Source of the DNA: a virus
UHGV virus genome: UHGV-0208865
Strand: one strand, 5' to 3'
Length of the DNA stretch: 51,347 nt
Below the pieces are notes generated by a model. It ran no database searches and had not been told where the DNA came from. It saw only the letters and a program-made list of their open reading frames with translations. This document shows, piece by piece, positions 2,940 through 49,996 of this stretch (the first letter of the stretch is position 1; the number at the start of each line of letters is the position of its first letter). A program made the translations under genes and the position numbers.

Positions 2940-4292
2940 ATGAAGTATGAGCAGACATTTCAAGAAGCGCTAGGGTCTTTTTCTGATACCCTAGCGCGTC
3001 TCAAGCGAGAAGATGTGGGCTGGTTGCCCTTGTCTGCTGTCGAAGGCCCTGATTCTCTGATTACTCTTGATGTGATTAGGGACCATTCGGCCCGTGCGCG
3101 TCGTTTGGCTACTCTTAACCCTATTGTGAAGCGTGGCTTGGTTGTCCGTAACGCTTACATGTGGGGCGACCCCGTTGTCTACAAGGGTTCTACTGGACCT
3201 TCCCGTAAGGTAATCGAGGAAAACGCGAAGGCTTGTTTCAGTGTGCAGGCGCGTGTTCGTGATGAGCAGTCTTTCAACACTGACGGTTGCGTCATTTATC
3301 TTGTGGATAAGGCGACAAAGACTGTTACACCTGTTCCGTTGATGCGCCTTGCTGGTGTGGCTACTGATGATGCGACAGGTGATGTCGTTGCGCTCCTGAT
3401 CAACCCTGTCGTAAGTGGTGAGCCTCAGTGGTACATGCTGTGGGACCGCGTGAGCGTGAAGATCACCAAGACTAACTACAAGGTGAACAAGCGCTTGACG
3501 GCTGTGTATGCGACCGTGAATCGCCTTGCTGCTGAACAGTATGGCAAGCCTGATCTCATGAGTGCTATGTCGTATGCGCAGAAGTATAAAGAGCATCTTG
3601 AGGTCGCACACCTCATGGAGAAGTCTCTCGCTAAGCTGGCCTTTAAGGCAACGAGCGTTAACTCTAAGCAGCAACAGGCCGTTCAGCAGCGTATGGCTGG
3701 GCCGGGTGTTGGTGCCACGGCGAACATTGGGGCCGGGCAAGACATTCAGGCGATTAACAAGGCTGGCGCTGGGATTGATTTCTCGGCTGGTACGCCTCTT
3801 GCGTCTATGGTGTCGGCTGCGCTCGACATCCCCCTGTCGGTGTTGTTGACGGATGGTTCTGCGGGCGGTCGCCAGGGTGCTGAGACTGCGCTTGAAGACC
3901 CGACGTTTAAGGCGTTGGAGCTGCGCCGTCAACTCCATATCGACATGCTGAATGAGATTGCTGCGGCTCTAGGTATTAAGGTGCAGATCGAGTACGGTTC
4001 GATCAATAATGATCAGACGCACCGCCGTATTCAGTCTTTGACGTTGGCGTTCCAGAATGGTGCTTTGCATCAGGTTGAAATGCGTTCCGGTGTGTTGCAG
4101 CTCTTGAAGATTGCTGGTTCTTTGCCGTTGGAAGATTTGCCTGCCCTACCCGATGAGGGTGAGAATGAGGACGAGGGCGAGGGCGAAGAAGACTCGGCAG
4201 CAAAGGACAACGAGGACGGACGCGCAACGGGTGTAGGCCCGTTGTCTGATGGTACTAACGACAATCGAGATAATGGAGGGACCGATGCCTAA
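2940..4292 (+). CDS. Portal protein
   Basis: 450 aa ORF directly after TerL with an acidic Glu/Asp-rich C-terminus. Synteny. Confidence 0.7.
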   Translation: MKYEQTFQEALGSFSDTLARLKREDVGWLPLSAVEGPDSLITLDVIRDHSARARRLATLNPIVKRGLVVRNAYMWGDPVVYKGSTGPSRKVIEENAKACFSVQARVRDEQSFNTDGCVIYLVDKATKTVTPVPLMRLAGVATDDATGDVVALLINPVVSGEPQWYMLWDRVSVKITKTNYKVNKRLTAVYATVNRLAAEQYGKPDLMSAMSYAQKYKEHLEVAHLMEKSLAKLAFKATSVNSKQQQAVQQRMAGPGVGATANIGAGQDIQAINKAGAGIDFSAGTPLASMVSAALDIPLSVLLTDGSAGGRQGAETALEDPTFKALELRRQLHIDMLNEIAAALGIKVQIEYGSINNDQTHRRIQSLTLAFQNGALHQVEMRSGVLQLLKIAGSLPLEDLPALPDEGENEDEGEGEEDSAAKDNEDGRATGVGPLSDGTNDNRDNGGTDA

Positions 4293-5157
4293 GCTGCATG
4301 AGTCCACGAGCGCTATCGGTACTGAGTCTCTTGGTGAGGGAAAGTACCGAATCAGAATTATCGTGCCCGGCCAGGGTTCTAGTGGTATTTACACTGCTGA
4401 GAACTTGGCTGAGTCTGCTCACCTGTTTAAGGCTGGCACGGAAATGTTTATAGACCACCCAACTGAGTCCGAGGAATGGGAGCGCCCGGAGCGTTCTATT
4501 CGTGACTATGCTGGTGTCTTTCTTGAAGACGCGACAGTTGGTGAGGATGGGGCACTCTACACTGTGTGTAAGGTGTTCTCTGGTGTTAACGAGCTAATCA
4601 AGGATAAGTGGGAATATATTGGTGTTTCCATTAATGCTTGGTGCGACCAGCCAATTGCGGAAACAGGTGTTGTTCCTGTTTTTGCTGGCGTTAGGTCGGT
4701 TGACTTTGTTACCGCGCCTGGTGCGGGTGGTGGCATTGTTGATCTGCTAGAATCAAATAGGAACAACAATTCTATTAAGGAGGGAACTGTGGACGAAAAG
4801 CTGCTTGAGTCCAAGTTCGATGAGCTGAAGGGTGAGATCGCTTCTCTTGTTGAAGCTATCGGCTCTAAGCTAGAGTCTGCTGTGGCCGCGATTCAGGAAG
4901 CCAAGGCAGAGGAACCGGCTGAGAAGGTCGAAGAGGCATCCGTGGATGTTGATTCTGTCCTTGAGGCCGGTAAGAAGATTGCCGAGTCCGGTCTGCCGGA
5001 TGCGGCTGTCGCGCGTGTTCATGAGGCTGTGAAGAAGGGTGCGGATGTCGAGTCTGCTCTTGAGGCTGAGCGTGCGTATCTGAAGGAGGCTATCGCTGCG
5101 ACTGCCACCCCTGTTGTCGAAAAGAACGAAGACACTTTCGGAAAGATTGGTTGGTGA
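4285..5157 (+). CDS. Capsid scaffolding protein, or a protease-scaffold fusion (uncertain)
   Basis: RBS GGAGGG plus ATG 4285. The C-terminal half is Ala/Glu/Lys-rich with coiled-coil character (KGEIASLVEAIGSKLESAVAAIQEAKAEE). Sits between portal and capsid genes. Confidence 0.5.
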   Translation: MPKLHESTSAIGTESLGEGKYRIRIIVPGQGSSGIYTAENLAESAHLFKAGTEMFIDHPTESEEWERPERSIRDYAGVFLEDATVGEDGALYTVCKVFSGVNELIKDKWEYIGVSINAWCDQPIAETGVVPVFAGVRSVDFVTAPGAGGGIVDLLESNRNNNSIKEGTVDEKLLESKFDELKGEIASLVEAIGSKLESAVAAIQEAKAEEPAEKVEEASVDVDSVLEAGKKIAESGLPDAAVARVHEAVKKGADVESALEAERAYLKEAIAATATPVVEKNEDTFGKIGW

Positions 5158-7255: not shown

Positions 7256-7746
7256 TGGGCTTGTCGATTGACCCGAACATCCACCCCTTGTTCATGTATG
7301 CCTCGTATTATCCGCTTCAGTTGTTGGCGAATACGAAGGTGAGCATCTTCAAGGAGCCTGACACAGTATCGTATGACTGGTCTGATGAGGCTGGTTTGTC
7401 GCTTGAGTATAACAACCCTGTGTGGAAGGGTTGGGCGAATATCACGCCTAACGTTGACTGGCGTGCCCGTAATCGTGAATGGGCTGGCACGGTCACAGGT
7501 GTTCATGCGTATCGTGTGCAGCTTTTGCATATTGACAAGAACGAGGTTTTTTCACGTGATTTGTGGGGCAACCCGGATGCGCGTGTGTCGTTCGCTGAGG
7601 GTATGCGCATCCAAGTAGAGGAAATGCCGACTGACCCACGGGTTGCGGGGTTGAAGCTGGTTGTGCGTAACGCTCAGGTTGATACACTGAACTGGCAGGT
7701 GACGCTTTTGTGTGATGTGGCAACGGGGGAGACTGCTAATGGCTAG
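7255..7746 (+). CDS. Head-tail joining (head closure) protein
   Basis: ATG 7255 overlaps the upstream stop (TAATG). Synteny. Confidence 0.4.
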   Translation: MGLSIDPNIHPLFMYASYYPLQLLANTKVSIFKEPDTVSYDWSDEAGLSLEYNNPVWKGWANITPNVDWRARNREWAGTVTGVHAYRVQLLHIDKNEVFSRDLWGNPDARVSFAEGMRIQVEEMPTDPRVAGLKLVVRNAQVDTLNWQVTLLCDVATGETANG

Positions 7747-8218
7747 GACTAAGAAGACTGTACGGTATGACGGTCGTGTTGCTGGTATTAAGGTGACTGT
7801 CGATACCGACAGGTATGGTGTTGCTGCTAAGGCGAAGAAGAAGATCATTGACGCTGCTTGGAAGAAGGTTGATGCTGCGGCTAAGGCTGCGGCTGTCGCT
7901 TCTACTGAGTATGGGCGTGCTTTGATTGCGACAGACCCGCGCCGTGTCGATACTGGCTATATGCGTGATGCTTTCCGTGTTGATGCTTCTAAGGGCGGGA
8001 AGGTTGTCGAGATCGGTTGGCATCGTTGGGACCGTGCTAAGCCGTACTATGCGTGGCAGGAGAATGGTACGTACAGCCAGCGCACGTCTGGTTATTTGCG
8101 CTCTGGTTTGCGTGGTAAGCCTACGGGCGGCGACAAGGGGAAGGGTATTACCCCGGCTAAGTATTTGCCTCGTGTGACGGCTGTGTTCCGTGAAGAGTTT
8201 TATGGGAGGCTGAAGTGA
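7739..8218 (+). CDS. Neck / tail completion protein
   Basis: ATG 7739 overlaps the upstream stop. Basic N-terminus MARTKKTVRYDGRV. Synteny. Confidence 0.4.
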   Translation: MARTKKTVRYDGRVAGIKVTVDTDRYGVAAKAKKKIIDAAWKKVDAAAKAAAVASTEYGRALIATDPRRVDTGYMRDAFRVDASKGGKVVEIGWHRWDRAKPYYAWQENGTYSQRTSGYLRSGLRGKPTGGDKGKGITPAKYLPRVTAVFREEFYGRLK

Positions 8219-8631
8219 CGGATAGGACTTTAGAGTTTGACGAGGCTTGTCTGGCTCTTTTGCGCACGATCAAGGATGTCGAGGTTTTCGATTCTTTTTC
8301 GCGTGATACGAAGGTGCCTCTCTATATTGTTTATCACGGCGGCGCTGAGATCAATCGTCAGTTGGACGAGTATGTGTCGCTTGGTGGTCACACTATGGAT
8401 GTGTATGAGCATCCTTTCACGGTGGACGTGTTCGCTGTGAATAAGAAACTTCTCAATCGGCTTGTGTCGGTTGTGAAAGAGAAGCTCATTGGTGCTGTGT
8501 TGGTTGAAGGGTCTAATGGGGTGAATATCGCTGCATCGGTGGGTACTGATAGCGATTACGATTCCACGTTGCGGCCTACGGTTTATCAACATAGCATGAG
8601 TTTTTACGTCAACCTGGATAGGGGTGAGTGA
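8215..8631 (+). CDS. Tail terminator protein candidate
   Basis: GTG start with RBS GGGAGG. Position before the major tail gene. Confidence 0.4.
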   Translation: MTDRTLEFDEACLALLRTIKDVEVFDSFSRDTKVPLYIVYHGGAEINRQLDEYVSLGGHTMDVYEHPFTVDVFAVNKKLLNRLVSVVKEKLIGAVLVEGSNGVNIAASVGTDSDYDSTLRPTVYQHSMSFYVNLDRGE

Positions 8632-10509: not shown

Positions 10510-13500
10510 GTGGCAGACGAGTCAATCAAGATTGATATTGACGTTAACGCTGCTGGAGCAGACAAGGCAGCACAGAGCATTGGTGCCCTGGAAAAGCAGA
10601 TTGGTTCGCTTCAGAGTGCTGTCGCTGCACTGAAGGCACCCTCTGGCCGTGGTGGTTCTGTTCTTGATTCTTTGCAGCTCGACAGCTCGAAGGTCAAGAA
10701 CCTGAAGGACTCTGCATCTGCGCTGAAGTCTGTGGCTGATGCTCTTGGCTCACTGAATAAGGCTGCTGGTGACGCGAGTAAGGCTGATCTTTCGGCGGGT
10801 GTCGATAAGGCTGTTTCGGCGTATCGACAGTTCATCCGTGAGACTCGCACGATGAACAACCTGAGTAAGGACCATATCGCTAAGCTGAAGGATACTGCCT
10901 CGGCTATGCGTGAGGTGGCTTCTGCGTCTAATGCTATGGCTGAGGCTGAGACGAAGGCGAAGAAGGCCCAGGCTCAATTGAACCAGTCGCAGGCACGTAA
11001 GACTGAGGCTCAGGCTGAAAAGCTGCGTGCTCAGGCAAGTGTGAAGCGTGAGGATAATGCCATCCCCTTGCAGAAGCAGAGGGGTAAGGACGAGCGTAGC
11101 CTTGTGAAGGCGAAGGGTGCTGAGGCCACTCGTCTTGCTGAGATTCAGGCACTCACCGCTTTGGAGCAGGCAGAGATTAGGGCGGCTGCAACGACGGCTT
11201 CTGCTGAGTCTAAGCGTGAAGCTGCTGTTGCTAGTGCGTCTGCGCGTATTGGTGCTGCTCGTGAGGCTGAAGTTGCGCGTACTGAGCGTGCTCGTATCCG
11301 CGAGGAAGAGCTGACTAAGCGTACTGCTATTCGTTCTGATGCTAGTACCGCTCGCAATAACGCTCGTGCGAGTGAGAAGGCTATTGAGAACGTCCGTTAT
11401 GCTGCACGCGACATGGCCGTGTATTACGGTGCTATCACGGCTGGTATTGGTCGTGTTGTGTCGTCTGCTGCTCAGGCTGGTATTGCGCAGGAGCGCGCAT
11501 TTGCTGACGTGGAGCGTACCGCGCAGGGTACTACGAGGTCTCTTAGTGAACTGAAGAGCGCTTACACTGAGCTTTCGACAACAACTACCATGTCTTTTGC
11601 TGATCTGTCGAAGATTGGTACGCTCGGTGCGCAGATGAGCATCCCGACGAACAAGTTGAAAGACTTTACGAAGGCTGTCGCAGAGTTCTCTACTGTGACT
11701 GGTATGGAAGTTGAGTCGGCTTCTACCGCGTTTGGTCGTTTCGGTGAGATGATGGGCAAGCTGCAAGAGTCGGCACCCGGCAAGGGTGACGGCTACGCGG
11801 TCCTCGCTAACCAGATCGCTGACTTGGGCGCTAAGTCTGTTGCGACTGAGCCTGAGATTGCGAACATGGCTGTGTCGATTGCTGCTCAGGGTAAGTCGGC
11901 TGGCTTCACCCAGAATGAGATTCTTGCCCTGTCGTCTACACTGTCGTCGCTCGCTATTCCGAAGGAATGGGCGCGCGGTTCGCTTCAGCGTATCTTCAAC
12001 TCGATCAATGCCGCTGCCGCTGAGGGTGGCGACAAGATGCACACGTACGCCCAGGCTGTCGGTGTGACTGATGAAGAGTTCCGTAAGCTGTGGCAGGACG
12101 ACCCGAACAAGGTGTTCCAGGGTATCTTGCAGAACCTTGCAGGTATTGGTGACAAGGTTGAGAAGGCTCAGGCAATTAAGGACTTGGGCTTCAAGAACGT
12201 GCGTGACGTTGAATTGCTGTCTCGTATGTCGAACAGTGTCGGCCTGTATGTCGAACAGTTGAAGGAGGCTGAGAGGGCTTCTAAGGGCACGACGTTCATT
12301 GATGAGTCGATGAACGTCATCATGGATACCTTGTCGGCTAAGATTGAGGCTTTCCAGCACGCTTTGCAGAACGCGGGCGCTGCCATGAACTCTAGCTTCA
12401 TGGTGCCTTTCAAGCTGCTGATTACTCTTGCGACAGGTGTTGTTAACGCTTTCGCTAAGCTGCCAGCACCTATTCAGGCGTTTGTTGGTGCGCTCGCGGC
12501 TGTGGCGACAGTGCGTGTTGGTCTTATGGCTGCGAAGGCTGCGGCTGTGTCGATGTCTGCAACGTACTTGCAGATGCAAAACCGCATGTTGCAGGCGACA
12601 GGTGCGCAGAAAGCCTCGTGGAGTGTCGTGTGGCAGGCTATTCGTCAGGCTCAGACGGCTACTGTCCAGTATGATTCGGCCCTTGCTGCTAACGTGGGTA
12701 CGGCTAATGCCGCTGCTGCGGCTAATCAGCGCCTTGCTGCTGCGGATAACATGGTGGCTGCGGCTGCGGGTAAGGCTGCTGCTGCGAAGAGCGCTCAGAA
12801 CACTGCTCAAGTGGCTTCTGCTGGCGCGTCTGCTGCGGCTGCGGGTGCTCAGGTTGCGGCTGGTGCCGGTCAGGCTGTGGGTGCGTTGACCAAGCTGTCG
12901 TCTGTGGGTTCTGGCTTGATGTCGATGTTCGGCGGGCCGTGGGGTCTTGTCATTTCTGCTGCCATTACTGCTGTATCTGTCGGCGCTACATACCTTGGTG
13001 ATGCTTTCCAGGAGTCGTCGGCTAAGGCTGACGAATTTAAGAACGCTGTGGGCGGCTCTTCAGCTATTCTGAACGCTTTGGCTCAGGATACAAAGGAAGT
13101 CGGTAATGGCACACAGACTGGCTTTATGGAGCTGAACGCAGCGATTGAACAGAATGGTGAAGTTCTCACCTCTAACGGCCAGGCGCTTGGTTACTACATT
13201 GATAAGTCCGGTCAGGTTGTTCAGGCTACCCACGAGCAGGCCGAGGCAATGGGCTTCTCGACCTTGAAGATCGGTGAGCACACCCAAGCATTGATTATGG
13301 ATGCTGTTCAGGGGTCTGATGCCTTTAAGAACATGTCGAAAGAAACTAAGCAGGCCCTTGTCGATATGGGCTTCTCGTACGCTAAGTACATTAAGCTCGC
13401 GTCCACCTCTGAGGCTCAGGGTGGTGGTCAGAAGGCTGCTGATGCTTACGTGAACGGGTATATCGAGCAGATTAAGGCTCGCAAGGCTGACGCTGTTAAT

Positions 13501-24928: not shown

Positions 24929-24956
24929 TGCTCTCCTTTCTGCTTGTATATAGTAC

Positions 24957-24993
24957 GGCGGGCCGTACCCTGGTGTCAAGATACGGCCCGCCG
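24957..24993. other. Perfect 12-bp inverted repeat hairpin between the primase gene and the upstream gene
   Basis: CGGCGGGCCGTA-ccctggtgtcaaga-TACGGCCCGCCG. Confidence 0.45.
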
Positions 24994-30557: not shown

Positions 30558-30896
30558 TTACTTAATCTCCCAAGTAATCGTCTGTGTAGTTTCTTCCCAG
30601 CCACAGTAAACCATTGCGTTAAGAACAACTTGTGCCCCTAGCTTGTCGAACATTTCTTGAACGTCGTGTTGCATGTCAGAGTTGAGATAGCGCTTGTACC
30701 CGTAGTAGTCGTCTTTGCCAATATAGGTGAGAATACTCAGACTATCCCCGTACAACTCAGCACAGATATAGTACTCACCCACGTTCAACAGGTCAACTAC
30801 CTTATTGTCCCACTTGTTAGTAAGCTCATGGATAGCATCTTCCACCGCGCGCATACAAGCGTCGCTATACATCTTAGTCAATTCTTCAAGATTCAT
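30558..30896 (-). CDS. Hypothetical protein
   Basis: ORF track. Confidence 0.4.
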   Translation of the reverse strand: MNLEELTKMYSDACMRAVEDAIHELTNKWDNKVVDLLNVGEYYICAELYGDSLSILTYIGKDDYYGYKRYLNSDMQHDVQEMFDKLGAQVVLNAMVYCGWEETTQTITWEIK

Positions 30897-31045
30897 TAGT
30901 TAGCCTCCCTAATCATTTTGACCTGTTCCTTGGTAAGACGGGCGAGAATACGTGGTCCCGCAATGACACCGATACCCATATCAAAGTCATGCGACACAAC
31001 GATACCTGTCCCGTCTGTCAACACTTGAATATAAGCATTGTCCAT
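30896..31045 (-). CDS. Small hypothetical protein (49 aa). Not in the ORF track because it is under 60 aa.
   Basis: Hand-translated MDNAYIQVLTDGTGIVVSHDFDMGIGVIAGPRILARLTKEQVKMIREAN. Tight start/stop overlaps with both neighbours. Confidence 0.3.
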   Translation of the reverse strand: MDNAYIQVLTDGTGIVVSHDFDMGIGVIAGPRILARLTKEQVKMIREAN

Positions 31046-33700: not shown

Positions 33701-34081
33701 TCATTCTGCCATGTGAACTACGCTACACGTCTGTGTGTCGTTGTCCCAGATGAACATATGTGCGTATCCGTGCAAGTAGCGCATATCGTCAATTGTCATG
33801 CCTTCATCGTCTGACTCCCAGTACCAATAGATACTGTTGTCAGCGGCATTAGTGCGACAACGCCACACGTAGCCGCCTACGTTCACGTACACGCCGCTAG
33901 GCTCATTCTCAGAGAACAAGTCAAGTAGTCCCACAAACTCATAGCCATGCTCAGTAAACCACTGGTTAATTAGCGACAGGTCCCAGCCTGTTTCGGGATT
34001 AACGTACCCGGCTAAGTGTTCCTGCATGGACTCTAGCGGGTAGTAACGGTCACTAATAACACTCAGCAATTCTTCCCACAT
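33701..34081 (-). CDS. Acidic Trp/Tyr-rich protein
   Basis: Start MWEELLSVISD at 34081. Confidence 0.4.
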   Translation of the reverse strand: MWEELLSVISDRYYPLESMQEHLAGYVNPETGWDLSLINQWFTEHGYEFVGLLDLFSENEPSGVYVNVGGYVWRCRTNAADNSIYWYWESDDEGMTIDDMRYLHGYAHMFIWDNDTQTCSVVHMAE

Positions 34082-34082
34082 G

Positions 34083-34241
34083 TTAGAACCCCCGCATATA
34101 ATCAATTCCGATAATGGCACACAAACCACATATAAACGCGCTAAACATACTTAAAAAACAAAGTATGTTAGTTTTCGCCATAGTACCCGCATAAACAAAC
34201 CAGGTCATAGCCATAATACCCAGTAGGATAACCACCAACAT
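34083..34241 (-). CDS. Small hydrophobic membrane peptide (52 aa)
   Basis: Hand-translated MLVVILLGIMAMTWFVYAGTMAKTNILCFLSMFSAFICGLCAIIGIDYMRGF. RBS CAGAAAGTGAGTAACAAAATG. Confidence 0.35.
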   Translation of the reverse strand: MLVVILLGIMAMTWFVYAGTMAKTNILCFLSMFSAFICGLCAIIGIDYMRGF

Positions 34242-34245
34242 TTTG

Positions 34246-34497
34246 TTACTCACTTTCTGTAAAGTAGATTACGTCTTCCAAGTAATTGATAGCGTTGTGC
34301 ATTACGTAACTTTCCCATTCATCGTGATTATCAGGGTTGCCGCCGTCTTCCAGATAGTTATCCCACAATGCACCCTCAATATCAGGATCATTGAAAATGC
34401 GACCCTTGTAATGCAACAGTGCATCACTTTGGGAACCTCGCCACTCAAAGCCGATACCGGGGATACCGTACCAATTGGGCAATTCATTGTATGACAT
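34246..34497 (-). CDS. Acidic Trp-rich small protein
   Basis: Start MSYNELPNWYG with RBS CCGAAAGGTAGAACT. Confidence 0.4.
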   Translation of the reverse strand: MSYNELPNWYGIPGIGFEWRGSQSDALLHYKGRIFNDPDIEGALWDNYLEDGGNPDNHDEWESYVMHNAINYLEDVIYFTESE

Positions 34498-34784: not shown

Positions 34785-34881
34785 GTTTGTGTCTCACTTT
34801 CTGTCGTTGGTTTGTAGGCTTTGTGCCTATGTTTCTAGTGTAGGTTGTTGATCTGTTGTTGTCAAGTTGTCAGAGTGTGTT

Positions 34882-36534: not shown

Positions 36535-36621
36535 TAGTTTCACCTTTCGGCTTGTCTTTGTTGATACTCTCAGTTTAGCGGGTTGCTGGCTTGTTGTCAA
36601 CCCGCTAAACTGTGTTGTCCG

Positions 36622-36909
36622 TCACTTGTTGATTGACTTGGAAAGCGCGGTCAGTGCTGCAACAGCGGTGTTAGCCAAGTCACGGTCAAGGTGTCCGCGC
36701 AGCGATTCATCGTTGATCTTGCTCGACAGGTCGATCATATCGTGGAACAAAGCGTTAATACACTTTGCAGTGCGTCGTTCTTCGTGTTCGCGCCTAATCG
36801 CGCCTTTGCGTGCGCTATCGACAGGCAGAAAATAGCGTTCCTGGTAGTCGCGTTCGTATTCTGCGAGGCGTGCCATCGTTTCGTAATCACACGCGAACGA
36901 GGTTCTCAT
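36622..36909 (-). CDS. Hypothetical protein, first gene of the leftward early operon
   Basis: RBS CCGAAAGGAAGCCGAAAA-ATG. Promoter-like elements lie immediately upstream. Confidence 0.45.
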   Translation of the reverse strand: MRTSFACDYETMARLAEYERDYQERYFLPVDSARKGAIRREHEERRTAKCINALFHDMIDLSSKINDESLRGHLDRDLANTAVAALTALSKSINK

Positions 36910-36951
36910 TTTTCGGCTTCCTTTCGGGTTGTTTCGTTTGCCGATACTTAA

Positions 36952-36980
36952 AGATTAGTGGGTAGGGCGTACGTTGTCAA
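36952..36980 (-). promoter_or_regulatory. Leftward promoter candidate (TTGACA-17-TAATCT) with a conserved leader
   Basis: Minus-strand TTGACA (+ strand 36975-36980) and TAATCT (+ strand 36952-36957) with a 17-nt spacer. The leader CTAATCTTTAAGTATCGGCAAACGAAACAACC is repeated at 33639-33715. Confidence 0.45.
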
Positions 36981-37054
36981 CATGAAAACATGTGATTAGG
37001 GACACATTGTTTAATGGTGGTTGTTAGCGGGTATGGAATAAGGAACGCGTGCGC

Positions 37055-37083
37055 GTAATAGCACCTTAGTTATGAGTTGTCAA
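37055..37083 (-). promoter_or_regulatory. Second leftward promoter candidate (TTGACA-17-TATTAC)
   Basis: Minus-strand TTGACA at + strand 37078-37083 and TATTAC at + strand 37055-37060. Confidence 0.4.
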
Positions 37084-37508
37084 TAGCTAGGCTATGTGTT
37101 GTGTGCGACAGGCTGTTAGGGCTGTTTGTTAGCAAGGTGAGAGCGGCGGCCCTGGCAGTTTATACCCTGTAGGGAGTGAATGTCAAGGTTTTAGTGTGTG
37201 TCGTTGGTTATATTGTGGGGCGTGTCAAGACAGCGACAGGGCCGGGAGGGATAACTAGACATCTCATAATGTGGATAGTTTTTGTGTTCGTGTTGACTTT
37301 AGAGTGAGAGTATGTTACTCGCATGGGCATAGCGTGGCGATTAGGTGGGTTGGTGGGTGTGGGTAGTGTGTAGGACAGCGTTTAAGGGGTCTAGAAGCGT
37401 GTCTGAGCGTGTTTTATAGTGTGGGTGGTAGTGGGTAGCCTTGAGTGGGTGTTAGGGCGTTGTAGGGGGCGTAGCGTAAATGTCATGACAATTCAATAGA
37501 GGTAGGTA

Positions 37509-37540
37509 TGCATATTATGCACTCGGTTGCATAATATGCA
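37509..37540. repeat. Perfect 13-bp inverted repeat TGCATATTATGCA-ctcggt-TGCATAATATGCA (operator/cruciform candidate)
   Basis: Read directly from the sequence. Confidence 0.7.
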
Positions 37541-37543
37541 GTC

Positions 37544-37574
37544 CTCGCGCGTACGCAGCTACGCGAGCGTTTTT
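37544..37574 (+). terminator. GC hairpin plus T5, a terminator-like element for rightward transcription
   Basis: CTCGCGCGTA-cgcagc-TACGCGAG-cg-TTTTT. Confidence 0.4.
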
Positions 37575-37731
37575 AACTTTATTAATATATAAATAATAAT
37601 GATAATATAATAATAAAAAAATTAAGTATAGATATAGATAGTTACTAATAATGTTTATTAATGGTTGATATTACACGTTAATAAATTAGTTATTGTGTGT
37701 AAATAATATTCTTAGTACGTAGAAAAAATAG
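37575..37731. other. AT-rich island (about 160 bp, over 85% A+T) in a genome that looks GC-rich on inspection; candidate DNA unwinding element
   Basis: ttattaatatataaataataatgataatataataataaaaaaattaagtatagatatagatag... Confidence 0.6.
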
Positions 37732-37808
37732 GGGGGACTACGCGAGGCGAAAATTAGGGGCCGTTGGTTGTGTTGGTTGCTTGCAGTTGATGCTAGTTCG
37801 TTGCAGTT

Positions 37809-37826
37809 GGTTGGTTGGTTGGTTGG
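37809..37826 (+). repeat. (GGTT)4GG tract, a two-tetrad G-quadruplex motif
   Basis: ggttggttggttggttgg. Confidence 0.5.
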
Positions 37827-37855
37827 TAAGGCAGGGGTAAGCTAGGTTAGGTGAG

Positions 37856-37918
37856 GGGTAGTTAAGTTAGGTAAGCCTAAGTTAGGGGGAGGGTAGTTAA
37901 GTTAGGTATACCTAAGTT
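37856..37918. repeat. Two 28-bp direct repeats (35-bp period), each containing a TTAGGTA..CCTAA palindrome. Copy 2 has the perfect palindrome TTAGGTATACCTAA. Iteron/operator candidates.
   Basis: gggtagttaagttaggtaagcctaagtt / gggtagttaagttaggtatacctaagtt. Confidence 0.6.
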
Positions 37919-38218
37919 TTGTTAATGGGTTTGGGTCCGGGGTTAGGGTGGGTATGTTGTGATGCGCGTCTCAAAATTGGGTATGGGTTTGGGTCGGGTA
38001 TGCGTTAGGGGATATGGGGCCGATGGTTGGTAGGACGCGGGGAGTGTGCTTGACAGGCGGGTGATTCGGGGCGTTTTTGAGGCAACTAAAAAATCAAATG
38101 CTTAGTAAGTGTAAAGATGGAGTGGGGTGTCATACCAGTTTGTGTATCTGGGATGTACTGGCACATACCCGTTTGTGCATACCCCTCAATAGAGTGGGTC
38201 AGATCACACGCTATCTTG

Positions 38219-38247
38219 TTGACTTTAACCGTCTATCCTTCTATGCT
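38219..38247 (+). promoter_or_regulatory. Rightward promoter candidate (TTGACT-17-TATGCT) for the operon starting at 38281
   Basis: TTGACT 38219-38224, TATGCT 38242-38247. Upstream direct repeats CATACC(A/C)GTTTGTG at 38133 and 38164. Confidence 0.5.
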
Positions 38248-38280
38248 TAAAACATTAACACCAAACGCAAAGGAGAAATC

Positions 38281-38520
38281 ATGGACGACCTACTGAACAC
38301 TAAGTTTTGTATCTCAACAGGCCATTGGATCACTTACGAGTGCCTACTTGATACCGGCACCGTCGTACACTTGCAAAAGCCCAGCAATAAAGTATGGATG
38401 CTCAACCACGACAAGCAGTGGGTGAACTGCAATGGTGAAAGCATCACAATCGAAGATATGCTGCAACGCATTGAACAACCCAACCAGGTTGTCGAAGTTA
38501 TCTACAGCCCTCACGTCTAA
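38281..38520 (+). CDS. Hypothetical protein
   Basis: RBS CAAAGGAGAAATC-ATG. Confidence 0.5.
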   Translation: MDDLLNTKFCISTGHWITYECLLDTGTVVHLQKPSNKVWMLNHDKQWVNCNGESITIEDMLQRIEQPNQVVEVIYSPHV

Positions 38521-41470: not shown

Positions 41471-41646
41471 TGTTGACTTTTGCTGTTGGGCTACTTATCC
41501 TCGGCTTTGCAGTGGCACTTCTCGGGATGATGCTCGATGAGGTCTACAATTGGGGCGCTAAGGTCGTTGCGGCTGGCACGATTATGATCTGCGTGTCTCT
41601 TGCTTGCCTTGCTGGTTGTGTCTTTTACTATGGTGTTCACGTCTAA
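41470..41646 (+). CDS. Small membrane protein (58 aa, GTG start)
   Basis: Hand-translated hydrophobic ORF VLTFAVGLLILGFAVALLGMMLDE... Confidence 0.3.
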   Translation: MLTFAVGLLILGFAVALLGMMLDEVYNWGAKVVAAGTIMICVSLACLAGCVFYYGVHV

Positions 41647-42281: not shown

Positions 42282-42496
42282 TTATCAATTTCAGTGAGTT
42301 GACTATTCCGTTCCATCGGCTTTCACCCGGAGCTGTGCTGATTAGTCCTGATGACGTTCGTTATCTAAAGTCCATCGGTGAAGACATGGAAGACTACTGG
42401 GTCCACGCGAAGGACTTGTGGACTAATCAAGCACACTCTGATGAAGAGTTGAAAAAGGAGATTGGAGACGGCGAAGGATGGAAGGTGCTACCGTGA
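42278..42496 (+). CDS. Hypothetical protein
   Basis: ORF track. Confidence 0.4.
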   Translation: MIINFSELTIPFHRLSPGAVLISPDDVRYLKSIGEDMEDYWVHAKDLWTNQAHSDEELKKEIGDGEGWKVLP

Positions 42497-42729
42497 TTGA
42501 TGGAATCAAGTACGTCGGTGATAGTAGGTTCATCATCACTAATAGTAAGCTGATGGAGCTGCTAGAGAAAAGCATTGCTTACGAAGTCTGTGACTGGGTG
42601 AACGGTGATAATTGGGACGGTTGGAAGTTGACTTCTGACGCTCTCGATGACATGTATCCCGGCAAGGGTGAAACCCCTTATGATGTCGCTGACTCGTTGG
42701 CAGGTCAGATTACGGAGGTGGAAGTGTGA
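42478..42729 (+). CDS. Hypothetical protein
   Basis: ORF track. Confidence 0.4.
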   Translation: MEGATVIDGIKYVGDSRFIITNSKLMELLEKSIAYEVCDWVNGDNWDGWKLTSDALDDMYPGKGETPYDVADSLAGQITEVEV

Positions 42730-43040: not shown

Positions 43041-43073
43041 TTGACAGGTGTGGGCAGAGCACATTAGTATAAA
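43041..43073 (+). promoter_or_regulatory. Promoter candidate TTGACA-18-TAGTAT(AAA)
   Basis: Read directly from the sequence. Confidence 0.5.
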
Positions 43074-44193: not shown

Positions 44194-44223
44194 TTGACAG
44201 CTTAGAAACGGTGACTCTATACT
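44194..44223 (+). promoter_or_regulatory. Promoter candidate TTGACA-18-TATACT upstream of the tRNA cluster
   Basis: Read directly from the sequence. Confidence 0.5.
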
Positions 44224-44298: not shown

Positions 44299-44383
44299 CC
44301 CCTTGTGGCGGAATAGGCAGACGCGCTCGACTCAAAATCGAGTTCCGAAAGGAGTGTGAGTTCGATTCTCACCGAGGGGACCA
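44299..44383 (+). tRNA. tRNA-Leu (anticodon CAA), type II with a long variable arm, CCA encoded
   Basis: Hand fold. Acceptor CCCCTTG/CGAGGGG, anticodon stem CTCGA/TCGAG with loop CTCAAAA, T-arm GTGAG-TTCGATT-CTCAC, 3' ACCA. Confidence 0.65.
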
Positions 44384-44547
44384 CCAAGCACCGGACGATG
44401 CTGGATGATTAGGCCATAGCCGCCTGCCGCTCTGATCAAGCGGACGTGCCGGTTGCCGTGACGGGGGTCACGTGCGGGGTAGCACCCTAGGACTGACAAT
44501 TTTTGTGTGATGGTTTTTGTTTCGTCAGTCAACAGCACCCCTTCTAA

Positions 44548-44620
44548 CGGAATGTAGCGCAGTAGGTAGCGCACCTGGTTTGGGACCAGGGGGTCGTGAG
44601 TTCGAGTCTCACCATTCCGA
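44548..44620 (+). tRNA. tRNA-Pro (anticodon TGG)
   Basis: Hand fold. Acceptor CGGAATG/CATTCCG, D-arm GCGC-agtaggta-GCGC, anticodon stem CCTGG/CCAGG with loop TTTGGGA, T-arm GTGAG-TTCGAGT-CTCAC. Confidence 0.7.
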
Positions 44621-44677
44621 CGTTGCACATGTGTAACACCTAGTTCCCAGGTGTCCTCCGGGACTACCTGGGTTTAA

Positions 44678-44748
44678 TCCCAGATAGTGTAATGGTAGCA
44701 TGGCAGGTTTTGGCCCTGTCGGACTAGGTTCGAGTCCTAGTCTGGGAG
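44678..44748 (+). tRNA. tRNA-Gln (anticodon TTG) candidate
   Basis: Hand fold. Acceptor TCCCAGA/TCTGGGA, anticodon stem GCAGG/CCTGT with loop TTTTGGC, T-arm CTAGG-TTCGAGT-CCTAG. The D-stem is weak. Confidence 0.5.
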
Positions 44749-44836
44749 CGCTTGACGATGAGGTTGCTCGATAGCACAAAGTGTCTCGACCAAGACACCC
44801 TCATCGAACGGCTGGGTTGCCCTGGTCAGGTAACAA

Positions 44837-46592: not shown

Positions 46593-47933
46593 ATGAAGCG
46601 TTTTCTTGCGACGACTGGTGTCGCACTGCTGATGATTGCTACGGCTGCTGCTACTGCCAATGCTGCCGACAACACCGAGATCAAGGCCGAGGTCACAAAG
46701 GCCACGTCCTCGTCTCGACAGACCTCTTCCGAGGTCAACGTGGGTGGCACCTGGGCCGTGGAGAAGCTGGCTGTCGGCCAGCAGTTCACTGTCTCGACGG
46801 TGCCGAATGAGGGTAAGGCCCCGTTCGTCTGGAACGCCTCGTTCCCGTTCACGCTCGATGATGGGTCTGTCGTCGGTGAGTGTGAAGCCAACGAGGCAGA
46901 GCTGACCTGTAAGGTCACTGAGATTCCTGAAGCCTACAAGGACAAGACGAACGTCAAGGGCACGTGGTGGGCACGCGCTCGCCTTCAGGGTGGTGCAATT
47001 GGCACCACCGAGGGTACGATCACCCTGAACGGTAAGGCCGTGAAGACCCTTGTCTGGGGCGACAAGGAGGGCACGGGCGAGTGTACTAATGATTGTGCAA
47101 ACCCGGCCCATTATGAATACGCTAACCCAGAGAACGTGAAGTTCGGGTGGTCTAACGCTGATGGGACTATCAGCTGGGGCATTAAGTGGATTGCCAACGG
47201 GGGTGTCGAGTACAGCGTCAAGGACTTCGACGCGAAGCTGGGTACGACCGTGAAGTGCGCGAAGTCCGACACGTGGAATCCTGATACGACAGAGATCATT
47301 ACTGCCACCCAGGTGGACCCGAACACGATCAAGTTCACGGCCCCTGAAGGCTCCAAGACGTGTGTGACGTACCCGCCTGAGCACACTGTCGTTCCTGAAG
47401 GTCAGACCTCTGCGACCAACCATGCCGAGGTGAACGGTATGAAGCTCGAAGCTACGGCGACGGTTAAGAGCAATGGTGGTACTAATGGTGATGGTTCTGT
47501 GAAGCCGACTCCGGCCCCTGCTCCTAGTGTCACGCCTGAGCCTACTCCTACGCCGTCTGAAGACCCGAAGCCTGAGCCGTCTCCGTCTACCCCTGCACCC
47601 GCTCCGTCTGCGGAACCGACCCCCGCTCCTGCGCCTTCTACACCTGCTCCTAAGCCTTCCACTGAGCCTGCTCCTAAGCCTTCTGATGAGCCGCAGTCTG
47701 CACCGTCTCCGACCCCTGAGCCGCGTGTGACGACTTCTCCGGTGCCTACGCCCTCGCCTGAGACCCCGAAGGCTGATGTGCAGTCCACCGTTGCGCCCGC
47801 TCCTGAAGCCAAGCTCGCTAAGACGGGTGCTGCCTCTGAAGGTATCGTGATCGCGCTTGTTACGGTCATTGCTGGTATCGCTGCCTGTGTCGTCGCGTGG
47901 CGTGCCGGTCGATTTGGCAACGACCATATCTGA
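46593..47933 (+). CDS. Secreted cell-wall-anchored surface protein: signal peptide, about 300-aa globular domain, Pro/Thr/Ala/Glu-rich stalk, LAKTG sorting signal, TM, then a positive tail
   Basis: MKRFLATTGVALLMIATAAATANA signal. (PTPAPAPS/PEPTPTPS...) stalk. LAKTG at 47814-47828 followed by the hydrophobic AASEGIVIALVTVIAGIAACVVAW and RAGR. LAXTG is the class E sortase motif in actinobacteria. Confidence 0.7.
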   Translation: MKRFLATTGVALLMIATAAATANAADNTEIKAEVTKATSSSRQTSSEVNVGGTWAVEKLAVGQQFTVSTVPNEGKAPFVWNASFPFTLDDGSVVGECEANEAELTCKVTEIPEAYKDKTNVKGTWWARARLQGGAIGTTEGTITLNGKAVKTLVWGDKEGTGECTNDCANPAHYEYANPENVKFGWSNADGTISWGIKWIANGGVEYSVKDFDAKLGTTVKCAKSDTWNPDTTEIITATQVDPNTIKFTAPEGSKTCVTYPPEHTVVPEGQTSATNHAEVNGMKLEATATVKSNGGTNGDGSVKPTPAPAPSVTPEPTPTPSEDPKPEPSPSTPAPAPSAEPTPAPAPSTPAPKPSTEPAPKPSDEPQSAPSPTPEPRVTTSPVPTPSPETPKADVQSTVAPAPEAKLAKTGAASEGIVIALVTVIAGIAACVVAWRAGRFGNDHI

Positions 47934-49275: not shown

Positions 49276-49694
49276 AAATTACTGACCCGGTGAAGCTCGA
49301 AGAGGCCCGCGCCCGTATGGCTAAGGCCCGTGCGTCTCGTAGTTCGATGAAGCACCCTGATGATGTTGAGCAGCGTGTAGGCACTGTTCGTCGGCTTGTG
49401 GTGCAGCAATTTACTGATGCAGGACTGACACTAGCAGATGACGGTCAACTGCTTGGTGCTGATTCTGCACGTTATTACTACAATAAACTTGTTCGAGGTT
49501 CACTAACCCTAAAGGACATGATTCTGCTTGGTGACTACATGCCTGTCGATTGGACACTGATCTTCAAGTCTATTCGACAGCCGAAGGAAGTTCTGCGTAC
49601 ACCAGGCACTCAGGAAGAAACTATCAGCATGGAGTTCAGCGAGCCTGGCGATAACCCGTTTGCTGATTACTTTACTGATGTGGATGGGGTGTGA
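49272..49694 (+). CDS. Hypothetical protein
   Basis: ORF track. Confidence 0.45.
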   Translation: MKITDPVKLEEARARMAKARASRSSMKHPDDVEQRVGTVRRLVVQQFTDAGLTLADDGQLLGADSARYYYNKLVRGSLTLKDMILLGDYMPVDWTLIFKSIRQPKEVLRTPGTQEETISMEFSEPGDNPFADYFTDVDGV

Positions 49695-49996
49695 TGGAAG
49701 AAATTAGCTTGCGTGATTTCGGTAAGAGCCTGAGAAGGGAGATTCCTAGTATCGGCTCTACGAAGGTCATTAGGTTTCTGCGCCGTGAAGGATACCTGAA
49801 GAAGGGTCGGCATATTAGCGAGCCTACGGAAAAGGCCAAAGGACTGCTTGGTATCTGGCGTGTCTATAAGAATGGTAGAAACTCGTATCCCCAGGTGTAT
49901 GTCACGAAAGAGGGTGTCCGCGTGTTCACTGATATGATTATCTCCGAGTATGAGGACTTCGGTCCTTGGGAGATTAGGAGAAGTTATAGTGACTGA
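49691..49996 (+). CDS. Hypothetical protein
   Basis: ORF track. Confidence 0.45.
   Translation: MMEEISLRDFGKSLRREIPSIGSTKVIRFLRREGYLKKGRHISEPTEKAKGLLGIWRVYKNGRNSYPQVYVTKEGVRVFTDMIISEYEDFGPWEIRRSYSD

Follow-up and report, generated by a model that had tools for sequence, protein, structure and literature searches.

A strongly C-poor, gene-free spacer at a divergent gene junction is a candidate replication origin and early control region in uncultured human-microbiome phages

We analysed the viral genome UHGV-0208865 (51,347 nucleotides, nt; hereafter the window), which looks like the complete genome, ~51 kilobases (kb) long, of an uncultured siphovirus-like phage. A strongly C-depleted tract on its + strand, at 36960-37500, is the left arm of a larger, putative origin/control element and not a stand-alone RNA gene. 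The element is a gene-free spacer of 1371 nt (36910-38280) and is the divergent junction of a leftward and a rightward gene block. From left to right it comprises a C-poor left arm, a cassette with a hairpin, an A+T-rich core, and a C-poor, repeat-bearing right arm. We tentatively favour the reading that the spacer serves as replication origin and early control region, and that its arms are read strand-specifically, through rightward untranslated transcription. It is distinguished from known phage intergenic origin and control regions by an unusually strong, selected one-strand C-poverty.

The original prediction had described a C-depleted unit of ~540 base pairs (bp) without an open reading frame (ORF), ending at a terminator-like hairpin. 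The composition was confirmed: the + strand of 36960-37500 holds 21.4% A, 12.4% C, 36.2% G and 29.9% T, against 24.1% C and 27.6% G in the window overall, and the quoted G/T runs were found. All 541-nt windows with less than 15% C lay inside 36842-38353, and the same scan found no comparably G-poor window across the whole 51 kb. The tract is thus real but not self-contained, as the C-poor, gene-free region spans the entire spacer, from a 95-amino-acid (aa) gene (36622-36909, - strand) to a 79-aa gene (38281-38520, + strand). The spacer has 12.7% C, 31.7% G and a GC skew of +0.43 on the + strand, and it is the sole place in the window with such C-poverty; its C residues concentrate in the hairpin cassette and near the promoter at its right end. 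The left arm (36990-37500, + strand) has 12.1% C, 36.4% G, 30.5% T and 57% purine, and the right arm (37721-38200, + strand) 11.5% C, 37.9% G and 59% purine. Both arms are ~49% G+C, against 52% in the window, and 67% G+T; their - strand is ~36-38% C and 11.5-12% G. The absence of coding content also held, since the ORFs overlapping the tract are only 31-43 aa long and differ among relatives. Hidden small genes were ruled out, as the conserved blocks contain indels whose lengths are not multiples of three and which shift the frame.

Relatives were collected through the flanking proteins and the helicase, which gave more than 70 contigs of 47-53 kb from IMG/VR and four from metagenome-assembled genomes. 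The window and eleven relative spacers were aligned (alignment A1, hereafter the alignment), and a wider set held 22 distinct spacers, or 23 with the window. The eleven aligned spacers are 1.22-1.40 kb long and gene-free, with 14-16% C and 29-32% G on the same strand as in the window; that of L013 was excised longer (1,590 nt) because this locus has no homologue of the 79-aa gene. All 22 distinct spacers show a C-poor arm, a core of 70-85% A+T and a second C-poor arm, with constant polarity relative to the helicase, and this layout is kept even in clades with differing left and right bounding promoters and flanking genes. In the divergent locus L068, single 100-nt windows fall to 2-5% C. The prediction had named unskewed sequence or protein-coding genes in related phages as grounds for abandoning it, and neither was seen in the 11 aligned or the 22 distinct spacers. 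Megablast and blastn found no similarity to known phages, the flanking small proteins had no family matches, and no description of the spacer element was found in the literature.

The alignment indicates that the skew is selected. Arm columns conserved in at least 90% of sequences have 8.7% C and 41% G, while those conserved in less than 70% have 16.7% C and 33% G. Conserved columns are thus more skewed than variable ones, and a mutational bias predicts the opposite. In addition, a purine content of 57-59% at ~49% G+C means that mainly G has taken the place of C, a change that deamination cannot bring about. The commonest difference between the window and L001 is G-to-T. Neither arm showed a helical period, and the left arm had no significant periodicity or repeat family; arrays of double-strand binding sites therefore do not explain its skew. 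Taken together, the column, purine and periodicity results argue that one strand is under a compositional constraint. Because the polarity is the same on either side of the core, the process concerned presumably reads one strand, as transcription or single-stranded DNA. The coding strands of the three gene blocks also have more G than C (skews of +0.13, +0.05 and +0.10), so the arms have a rightward-sense composition. Elsewhere in the window, other short stretches of strong skew, measured in 200-nt windows, lie apparently within predicted coding ORFs, at 7596-7926, 8346-8563, 42406-42658 and 49676-49881 (above +0.35) and, apparently in predicted coding ORFs, at 30730-30932, 34040-34287 and 47504-47740 (below -0.35).

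The spacer is bounded by consensus promoters that face away from it. P_L (36952-36980, - strand; TTGACA, 17 nt, TAATCT) is predicted to serve the 95-aa gene and the replication operon, and P_R (38219-38247, + strand; TTGACT, 17 nt, TATGCT) the 79-aa gene and the rightward operon. Both are kept in 12/12 aligned spacers, P_L in the form TTGACA-17-TAnnnT. With the two promoters at its two ends, ~1.2 kb of the spacer lies upstream of both, and P_R is only 35 nt from its ribosome-binding site. The motif TTGACW-N16-18-TANNNT occurs 10 times in the window against 2.1 expected, and nine copies are co-oriented with the local genes (- strand, 24950-24979, 34837-34865, 36572-36600, 36952-36980 and 37157-37186; + strand, 38219-38247, 41473-41501, 43041-43070 and 44194-44223); the tenth, at 422-451 on the - strand, is not among these nine. 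This pattern suggests that transcription of the two divergent early blocks starts from host sigma-70-type promoters. The leftward block (20.5-36.9 kb) encodes a family-A DNA polymerase, a primase, an AAA_24/Sak4-like protein, a Cas4-like exonuclease and an SNF2 helicase, and the rightward block, from 38281, small genes, three transfer RNAs (tRNAs) and an endolysin. The spacer is hence a non-coding, promoter-bounded, ORF-free region between divergent gene blocks, the setting of the origin of Lactococcus Ceduovirus (c2-type) phages discussed below.

The core (37575-37720) is 85% A+T, contains the sole 200-nt window above 70% A+T in 51 kb, and is a candidate DNA-unwinding element. It is ~70-85% A+T in every relative while belonging to at least three unrelated sequence types. 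Within 60-340 nt, the core is followed by 10-nt repeats (4.8 copies) and 35-nt repeats (2.4 copies), the combination of A+T-rich and directly repeated DNA that characterises iteron origins. Promoter-like sites occur in the core on both strands, such as TTAATA, 18 nt, TATAAT at 37582-37611 (+ strand) and a leftward TTTACA, 17 nt, TAACGT at ~37703, with others in or beside it. To its left lies the cassette, with two copies of the 13-bp palindrome TGCATAnTATGCA (37509-37521 and 37528-37540), which is unique in the window and is probably a site for a dimeric protein. The same cassette stands at the same position in L005, L013, L018, L020 and L021. Other relatives have two copies of GTTTACATGG, CGTCAgagTGACG or purine repeats instead, giving at least four interchangeable types, and between otherwise similar phages the central cassette varies in mosaic fashion. 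In L068 (2100-2330, - strand of the locus), the palindromes give way to ~25 purine-only units of 10-11 nt (GGTAAAGRRAA), arranged in tandem between the left arm and the core with a period of about one helical turn.

Between the cassette and the core, at the arm/core boundary, a G+C-rich hairpin followed by TTTTT (37544-37574, + strand) resembles a terminator for rightward RNA. Its stem (37548-37565) has 6 pairs, 4 of them G-C, and its tail is AGCGTTTTTA, the stem-loop and T-tract expected of an intrinsic terminator. The hairpin is well formed in the window and L013 and in L008, L009 and L012; it is weak or has no T-run in others and is absent in L068. In a scan of all 23 spacers, hairpins with T-rich tails were rightward in all but one case, and such rightward hairpins are seen repeatedly at two places, the left border of the core and a point ~80 nt upstream of P_R.

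R-loop-forming sequences were sought on both strands with our own QmRLFS-style implementation, which looks for G clusters with a stretch of at least 100 nt and at least 40% G behind them. The whole window contained only two, at 37239-37510 and 37927-38157 (+ strand), both for rightward RNA only. The left-arm site was found at the same place in 11/11 relatives (12/12 spacers with the window), and the - strand had none. The predicted R-loop proneness of the tract was therefore supported by sequence criteria that single out this spacer in the window, but thermodynamics supported it less well. The nearest-neighbour advantage of the RNA:DNA hybrid reached z -3.5 in the right arm, where 37821 is the global minimum of hybrid minus duplex free energy for rightward RNA, and only ~z -1.9 in the left arm, whose T-richness makes its advantage modest. 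By the same thermodynamics, the global optimum of hybrid over duplex falls on leftward RNA at ~47.5 kb, and coding stretches at 47435-47889 (- sense) and at 46870-47225, 10889-11142 and 4122-4361 (+ sense) have a hybrid preference equal to or above that of the spacer arms.

The other RNA-level suggestions of the prediction fared worse. Canonical G-quadruplex motifs, defined as four G-runs of at least 3 with loops of 1-7 nt, are absent from 36960-37500; the only two in the window lie in the right arm (37927-37952 and 37979-37998, + strand). As 7/11 relatives have no canonical motif, the G-quadruplex was rejected as a conserved feature. A loose motif with loops of up to 12 nt occurs at 37423-37469, and G-runs are enriched. 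The covariation check proposed for a non-coding RNA was run on the relatives: RNAalifold found no consensus structure for either arm on either strand (0-17 pairs, 0 to -4.5 kcal/mol), and Rfam gave no match at gathering score and only noise at E<=5. Minimum free energies (MFE) compared with shuffles gave z -2.5 (+ strand) and -3.4 (- strand) for the left arm and 0.06 for the right arm. These modest scores stem from DNA palindromes with no consensus fold, and a structured RNA was rejected.

According to the favoured origin/control reading, the A+T core would act as the unwinding element, and the palindrome cassette and repeats would be sites for an initiator or regulator. Rightward untranslated transcription through the arms would yield a C-poor, G-rich RNA. 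Being C-poor, this RNA would bind Rho poorly and so escape termination; being G-rich, it would stay hybridised to its C-rich template beside the core. The retained hybrid could then activate or prime replication, as has been proposed for the c2 PE1-T transcript, T4 oriF/oriG and ColE1 RNA II. A bolder form of this proposal, which we consider rather improbable, is that an oral actinobacterial phage family carries a transcription-driven origin of mitochondrial or ColE1 type, with more than 1 kb of untranslated DNA kept nearly free of C in the RNA sense by selection, escape from Rho, hybrids on both sides of the core, and a swappable cassette that sets specificity. Inside the region, the only candidates for a rightward promoter are the promoter-like sites of the core and P_X (37292-37321, + strand; TTGACT, 17 nt, TG-T-TACTCG), which is non-canonical. 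The -35 region of P_X is a near copy of that of P_R (direct repeat D18), and its motif TGnTAYnCG is conserved across clades.

Several observations weigh against this reading. The -10 box of P_X has no canonical final T, which makes its function uncertain, and P_X was dropped as a recurrent promoter class because the window shows no other occurrence of its motif. None of the 22 spacers has a consensus rightward promoter in the left arm, and the consensus promoters within that arm of the window (36980 and 37186) face left. The terminator-like hairpin predicted at the right end of the tract is present, but a hairpin with a T-run occurs in only about a quarter to half of the relatives (~5/12 aligned and 6/23 distinct spacers, in two sequence families of the same shape), and terminator-like sites in the window show no excess over shuffles. 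The hybrid advantage of the left arm is equalled by several coding regions, and both the R-loop-forming sequences and the excess of rightward hairpins are in part a reflection of base composition. No initiator gene was recognised, and among the neighbouring genes no family tracked the TGCATAnTATGCA cassette type as an initiator candidate would, the sole matches being explained by close relatedness. DnaA boxes are not enriched: 2/33 one-mismatch matches in the window fall in the spacer, and a DnaA-box cluster was rejected accordingly. Gene orientation confounds the minimum of the cumulative GC skew, which falls at ~36.9 kb.

Among other explanations, the spacer could be a protein-bound double-stranded scaffold for origin or regulatory function, in which asymmetric sites arrayed in direct orientation produce the skew as a by-product and no RNA is made. 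This is unlikely. In its favour, the 10-nt and 35-nt repeats of the right arm carry palindromic TTAGG/CCTAA half-sites, and the short motifs GTTGGT (x10), GTGGGT (x9) and GTTAGG (x8) are over-represented. The ~25 tandem repeats of L068, eight tandem repeats in the corresponding gap of phage Amigo (below) and the many short invariant blocks fit it as well. It does not account for a left arm without periodicity or repeat family, for variable columns that are still skewed (16.7% C vs 24%), or for skew that survives where clades cannot be aligned, and the prevalence of G-to-T exchange suggests compositional over site-specific constraint. A constraint on composition rather than sequence would also be expected if the spacer controlled Rho-dependent polarity without any priming, an explanation to which we give a lower probability still. 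In one version a rightward leader would be invisible to Rho; in the other, leftward C-rich RNA (C/G ~2.5-3) would form a very long Rho-loading site that halts transcription coming from the core or farther right ahead of the replication operon. Rho-loading (rut) sites are known to be C-rich, G-poor and weakly structured, and leftward RNA of the arms (~36% C, 12% G) would be long, C-rich, G-poor and little structured, a correspondence of composition only; leftward promoter-like sites do occur in and beside the core (~37703). Left unexplained are the core, the palindrome cassette and the repeats, and no rightward genes need a leader, because P_R lies so close to its ribosome-binding site.

Recombination offers a further, quite improbable, explanation, namely that the G+T-rich strand loads a RecA-fold annealing protein or acts as a one-way Chi-like cluster protecting replication intermediates, as a single-stranded DNA recombination or end-protection signal, making the spacer a hot spot. 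RecA prefers GT-rich DNA and Chi sites are G-rich, and G+T makes up 67% of the arms. Among the phage's own genes are those for an AAA_24 (Sak4-like) protein and a Cas4-like exonuclease, and the cassette is swapped among relatives, as expected beside a hot spot. No motif, however, is repeated often enough for a Chi cluster. It is very improbable that the composition is a functionless footprint of a + strand that is often single-stranded and loses C by deamination. The G>C and T>A skews do match those of a displaced or non-template strand, but conserved columns are the more skewed ones, a purine content of 57-59% is beyond the reach of transitions, and at ~49% G+C the missing C has gone mainly to G, not T; neutral deamination bias is disfavoured by column skew and purine content. 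Least credible is a structured non-coding RNA gene or G-quadruplex element. The left arm folds slightly better than shuffles and the right arm holds the only canonical G-quadruplex motifs of the window, but there are essentially no consensus pairs and no Rfam match, the right arm folds no better than shuffles (z 0.06), the fold signal comes from DNA palindromes, and the canonical motif is missing from the tract and from 7/11 relatives.

By analogy, the closest documented parallel to the spacer is the origin transcript of Ceduovirus c2. The Ceduovirus origin is a non-coding region between divergent gene blocks that exists in three interchangeable types and gives rise to a non-coding transcript, itself required (PMC7150918); this PE1-T transcript has been implicated in transcription-mediated initiation (PMC7150918). 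Both regions lie at a divergent-block junction, have consensus promoter flanks and interchangeable sequence types, and lack ORFs and ribosome-binding sites. Both also have more G than C on the sense strand, that of the c2 transcript having 23.7% G, 14.9% C and a G7 run. They differ in length (611 bp in c2 vs 1371 bp) and in skew (+0.23 vs +0.43 to +0.6); the transcript promoter is mapped in c2, whereas none is evident in the spacer, the sequences share no similarity, and the hosts belong to different phyla.

The T7 primary origin, the mitochondrial conserved sequence block (CSB) region and ColE1 RNA II are transcription-primed or R-loop origins. Such origins, including T4 oriF/oriG and herpesvirus oriLyt, resemble the spacer in placing a G-rich non-template strand beside an A+T-rich unwinding segment. 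For T4, ColE1 and herpesvirus oriLyt, initiation from an R-loop is established (PMC12599619). The window phage is further like them in encoding a family-A DNA polymerase and a primase and in carrying R-loop-forming sequences. It differs in that its G-rich tracts flank the core on both sides with the same polarity, and in that the left arm is T-rich and would form weaker hybrids. Iteron origins (lambda ori, SPP1 oriL/oriR, theta plasmids) share with the spacer an A+T-rich segment adjoining dyad-bearing tandem repeats, a likeness strengthened by the L068 repeats at about one helical turn. Unlike them, the spacer lies outside any gene, its arms greatly exceed iteron arrays in length, repeats are missing from the left arm, no initiator is recognised, and DnaA boxes are unenriched.

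To our knowledge, the replication origins of actinobacteriophages are essentially unmapped. Arthrobacter phage Amigo (cluster AQ), a cultured distant relative, has a 985-nt gene-free gap at the syntenic junction (NC_041949, 52621-53605; L024:16622-17606). It has the same leftward gene order as the window phage (PolA, primase, Sak4-like protein, exonuclease and helicase) and likewise a repeat-bearing gap at the divergent junction. Eight tandem TTGTAC(C/T)GG repeats lie in the gap, together with a perfect DnaA box TTATCCACA. The gap differs from the spacer in its lack of skew (absolute value below 0.2), in having no extreme A+T core and in the perfect DnaA box, and protein identity is 27-41%. 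The paper on cluster AQ does not comment on this gap (PMC5513430), which may be an unrecognised cluster AQ origin.

The spacer thus provides a testable origin candidate for abundant uncultured phages of the human microbiome. Its skew is extreme, confined to one strand, selected, and kept where sequence is not, a compositional constraint that is unusual for bacterial non-coding DNA. Such a constraint fits a process acting on one strand, such as persistent transcription without translation, R-loop formation, escape from Rho or loading onto single-stranded DNA. Should the R-loop reading prove true, the spacer would be a compact bacterial-virus model of origin firing driven by G-skew, for which mitochondria, ColE1 and herpesviruses are otherwise the study systems. 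Should it prove false, the spacer would still be an annotation landmark, as origin or early control region, and would explain why assemblies tend to break here.

The left arm contains further elements, in which short invariant blocks alternate with variable stretches in the alignment. An operator-like invariant block, ACATGAAAACATGTGATTAGGGACACATTG (36980-37009), adjoins the -35 box of P_L; the block is invariant in the alignment, is unique in the window and includes the palindrome ACATG-AAAA-CATGT. An extra leftward consensus promoter (37157-37186, - strand; TTGACA, 18 nt, TAAACT) lies in an insertion that the window shares with L001 and L005 in the alignment, and several other spacers have equivalents; it predicts that 36910-37150 is transcribed leftward in the window phage. 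The conserved block ACTAGACATCTCATAATGTGGATAG (37254-37278; ACTAGACATCTCA..ATGTGGATAG) is present in ~28 distinct relatives, taking the form TTGACATCTCA... in many clades, and its TGTGGATAG portion is an 8/9 match to a DnaA box. Farther right, GTTTAAGGGGTCTAGAAG (37380-37397) is near-invariant in the alignment and also present in the divergent L068, and GTAGCGTAAATGTCATGACAATTC (37471-37494) is a conserved block of the alignment at the end of the left arm.

The right arm starts with the conserved block TAGAAAAAATAGGGGGGACTACGCGAGGCG (37720-37749, + strand), opening AGGGGGG.CTACGCGAGGCG. The 10-nt repeats GTTGGTTGCA (37776-37827, + strand) run into (GTTG)5.5 and are followed by the iteron-like 35-nt tandem repeat (37836-37918, + strand). 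Relatives conserve this 35-nt repeat, which includes the palindromes TTAGGTAAGCCTAA and TTAGGTATACCTAA. The tandem repeats of this arm contain TTAGG/CCTAA dyads. Conserved blocks of the alignment follow at 38046-38057 (GTGCTTGACAGG), 38088-38117 (AAAAAATCAAATGCTTAGTAAGTGTAAAGA) and 38124-38136 (GGGGTGTCATACC). In many relatives (L030, L047, L084, L086, L089), GGGGTGTCATACC folds into a short hairpin with TTTG behind it, ~80 nt upstream of P_R; it could be a terminator insulating P_R or a protein-binding site. In the window its stem is degenerate (38124-38145).

Outside the spacer, the structural genes are on the + strand, and the large terminase (1418-2926) is 41% identical to those of Arthrobacter phages. 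One copy of the consensus promoter stands directly upstream of the tRNA cluster (44299-44749). The host is probably an oral actinobacterium, an assignment based on bin labels and not settled by them. Four near-identical whole-phage contigs of 47.8-52.1 kb (L025-L028: CALGXU010000088.1, CAUUEB010000008.1, CALIZH010000006.1 and CALHID010000243.1) were binned into Rothia, Atopobium and Actinomyces metagenome-assembled genomes, and such binning is unreliable. Since near-identical phages appear under three host labels, at most one label is correct, and the bins probably hold a free phage genome.

Contig ends accumulate in the spacer. About 9 of ~70 independent contigs end within the equivalent of window positions 36970-38225, five of them in the core (~13% vs ~3% expected); loci ending in the spacer are L029, L035, L037, L038, L046, L067, L094 and L095. 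Physical genome ends in the core, as a cos site or terminal repeat, were rejected because the ends are scattered and one contig is circular across the core with a 119-nt overlap. Many contigs also end in the neighbouring variable gene region. The ends are likelier to be assembly breaks, from low coverage or strain-level variation of the cassette. One contig, L067 (IMGVR_UViG_3300009965_000009), begins at positions 1-60 with the Nextera-adapter-like string TCGTCGGCAGCGTCAAATGTGTATAAGATACAG, followed directly by A+T-core sequence, and this string appears to be adapter contamination.

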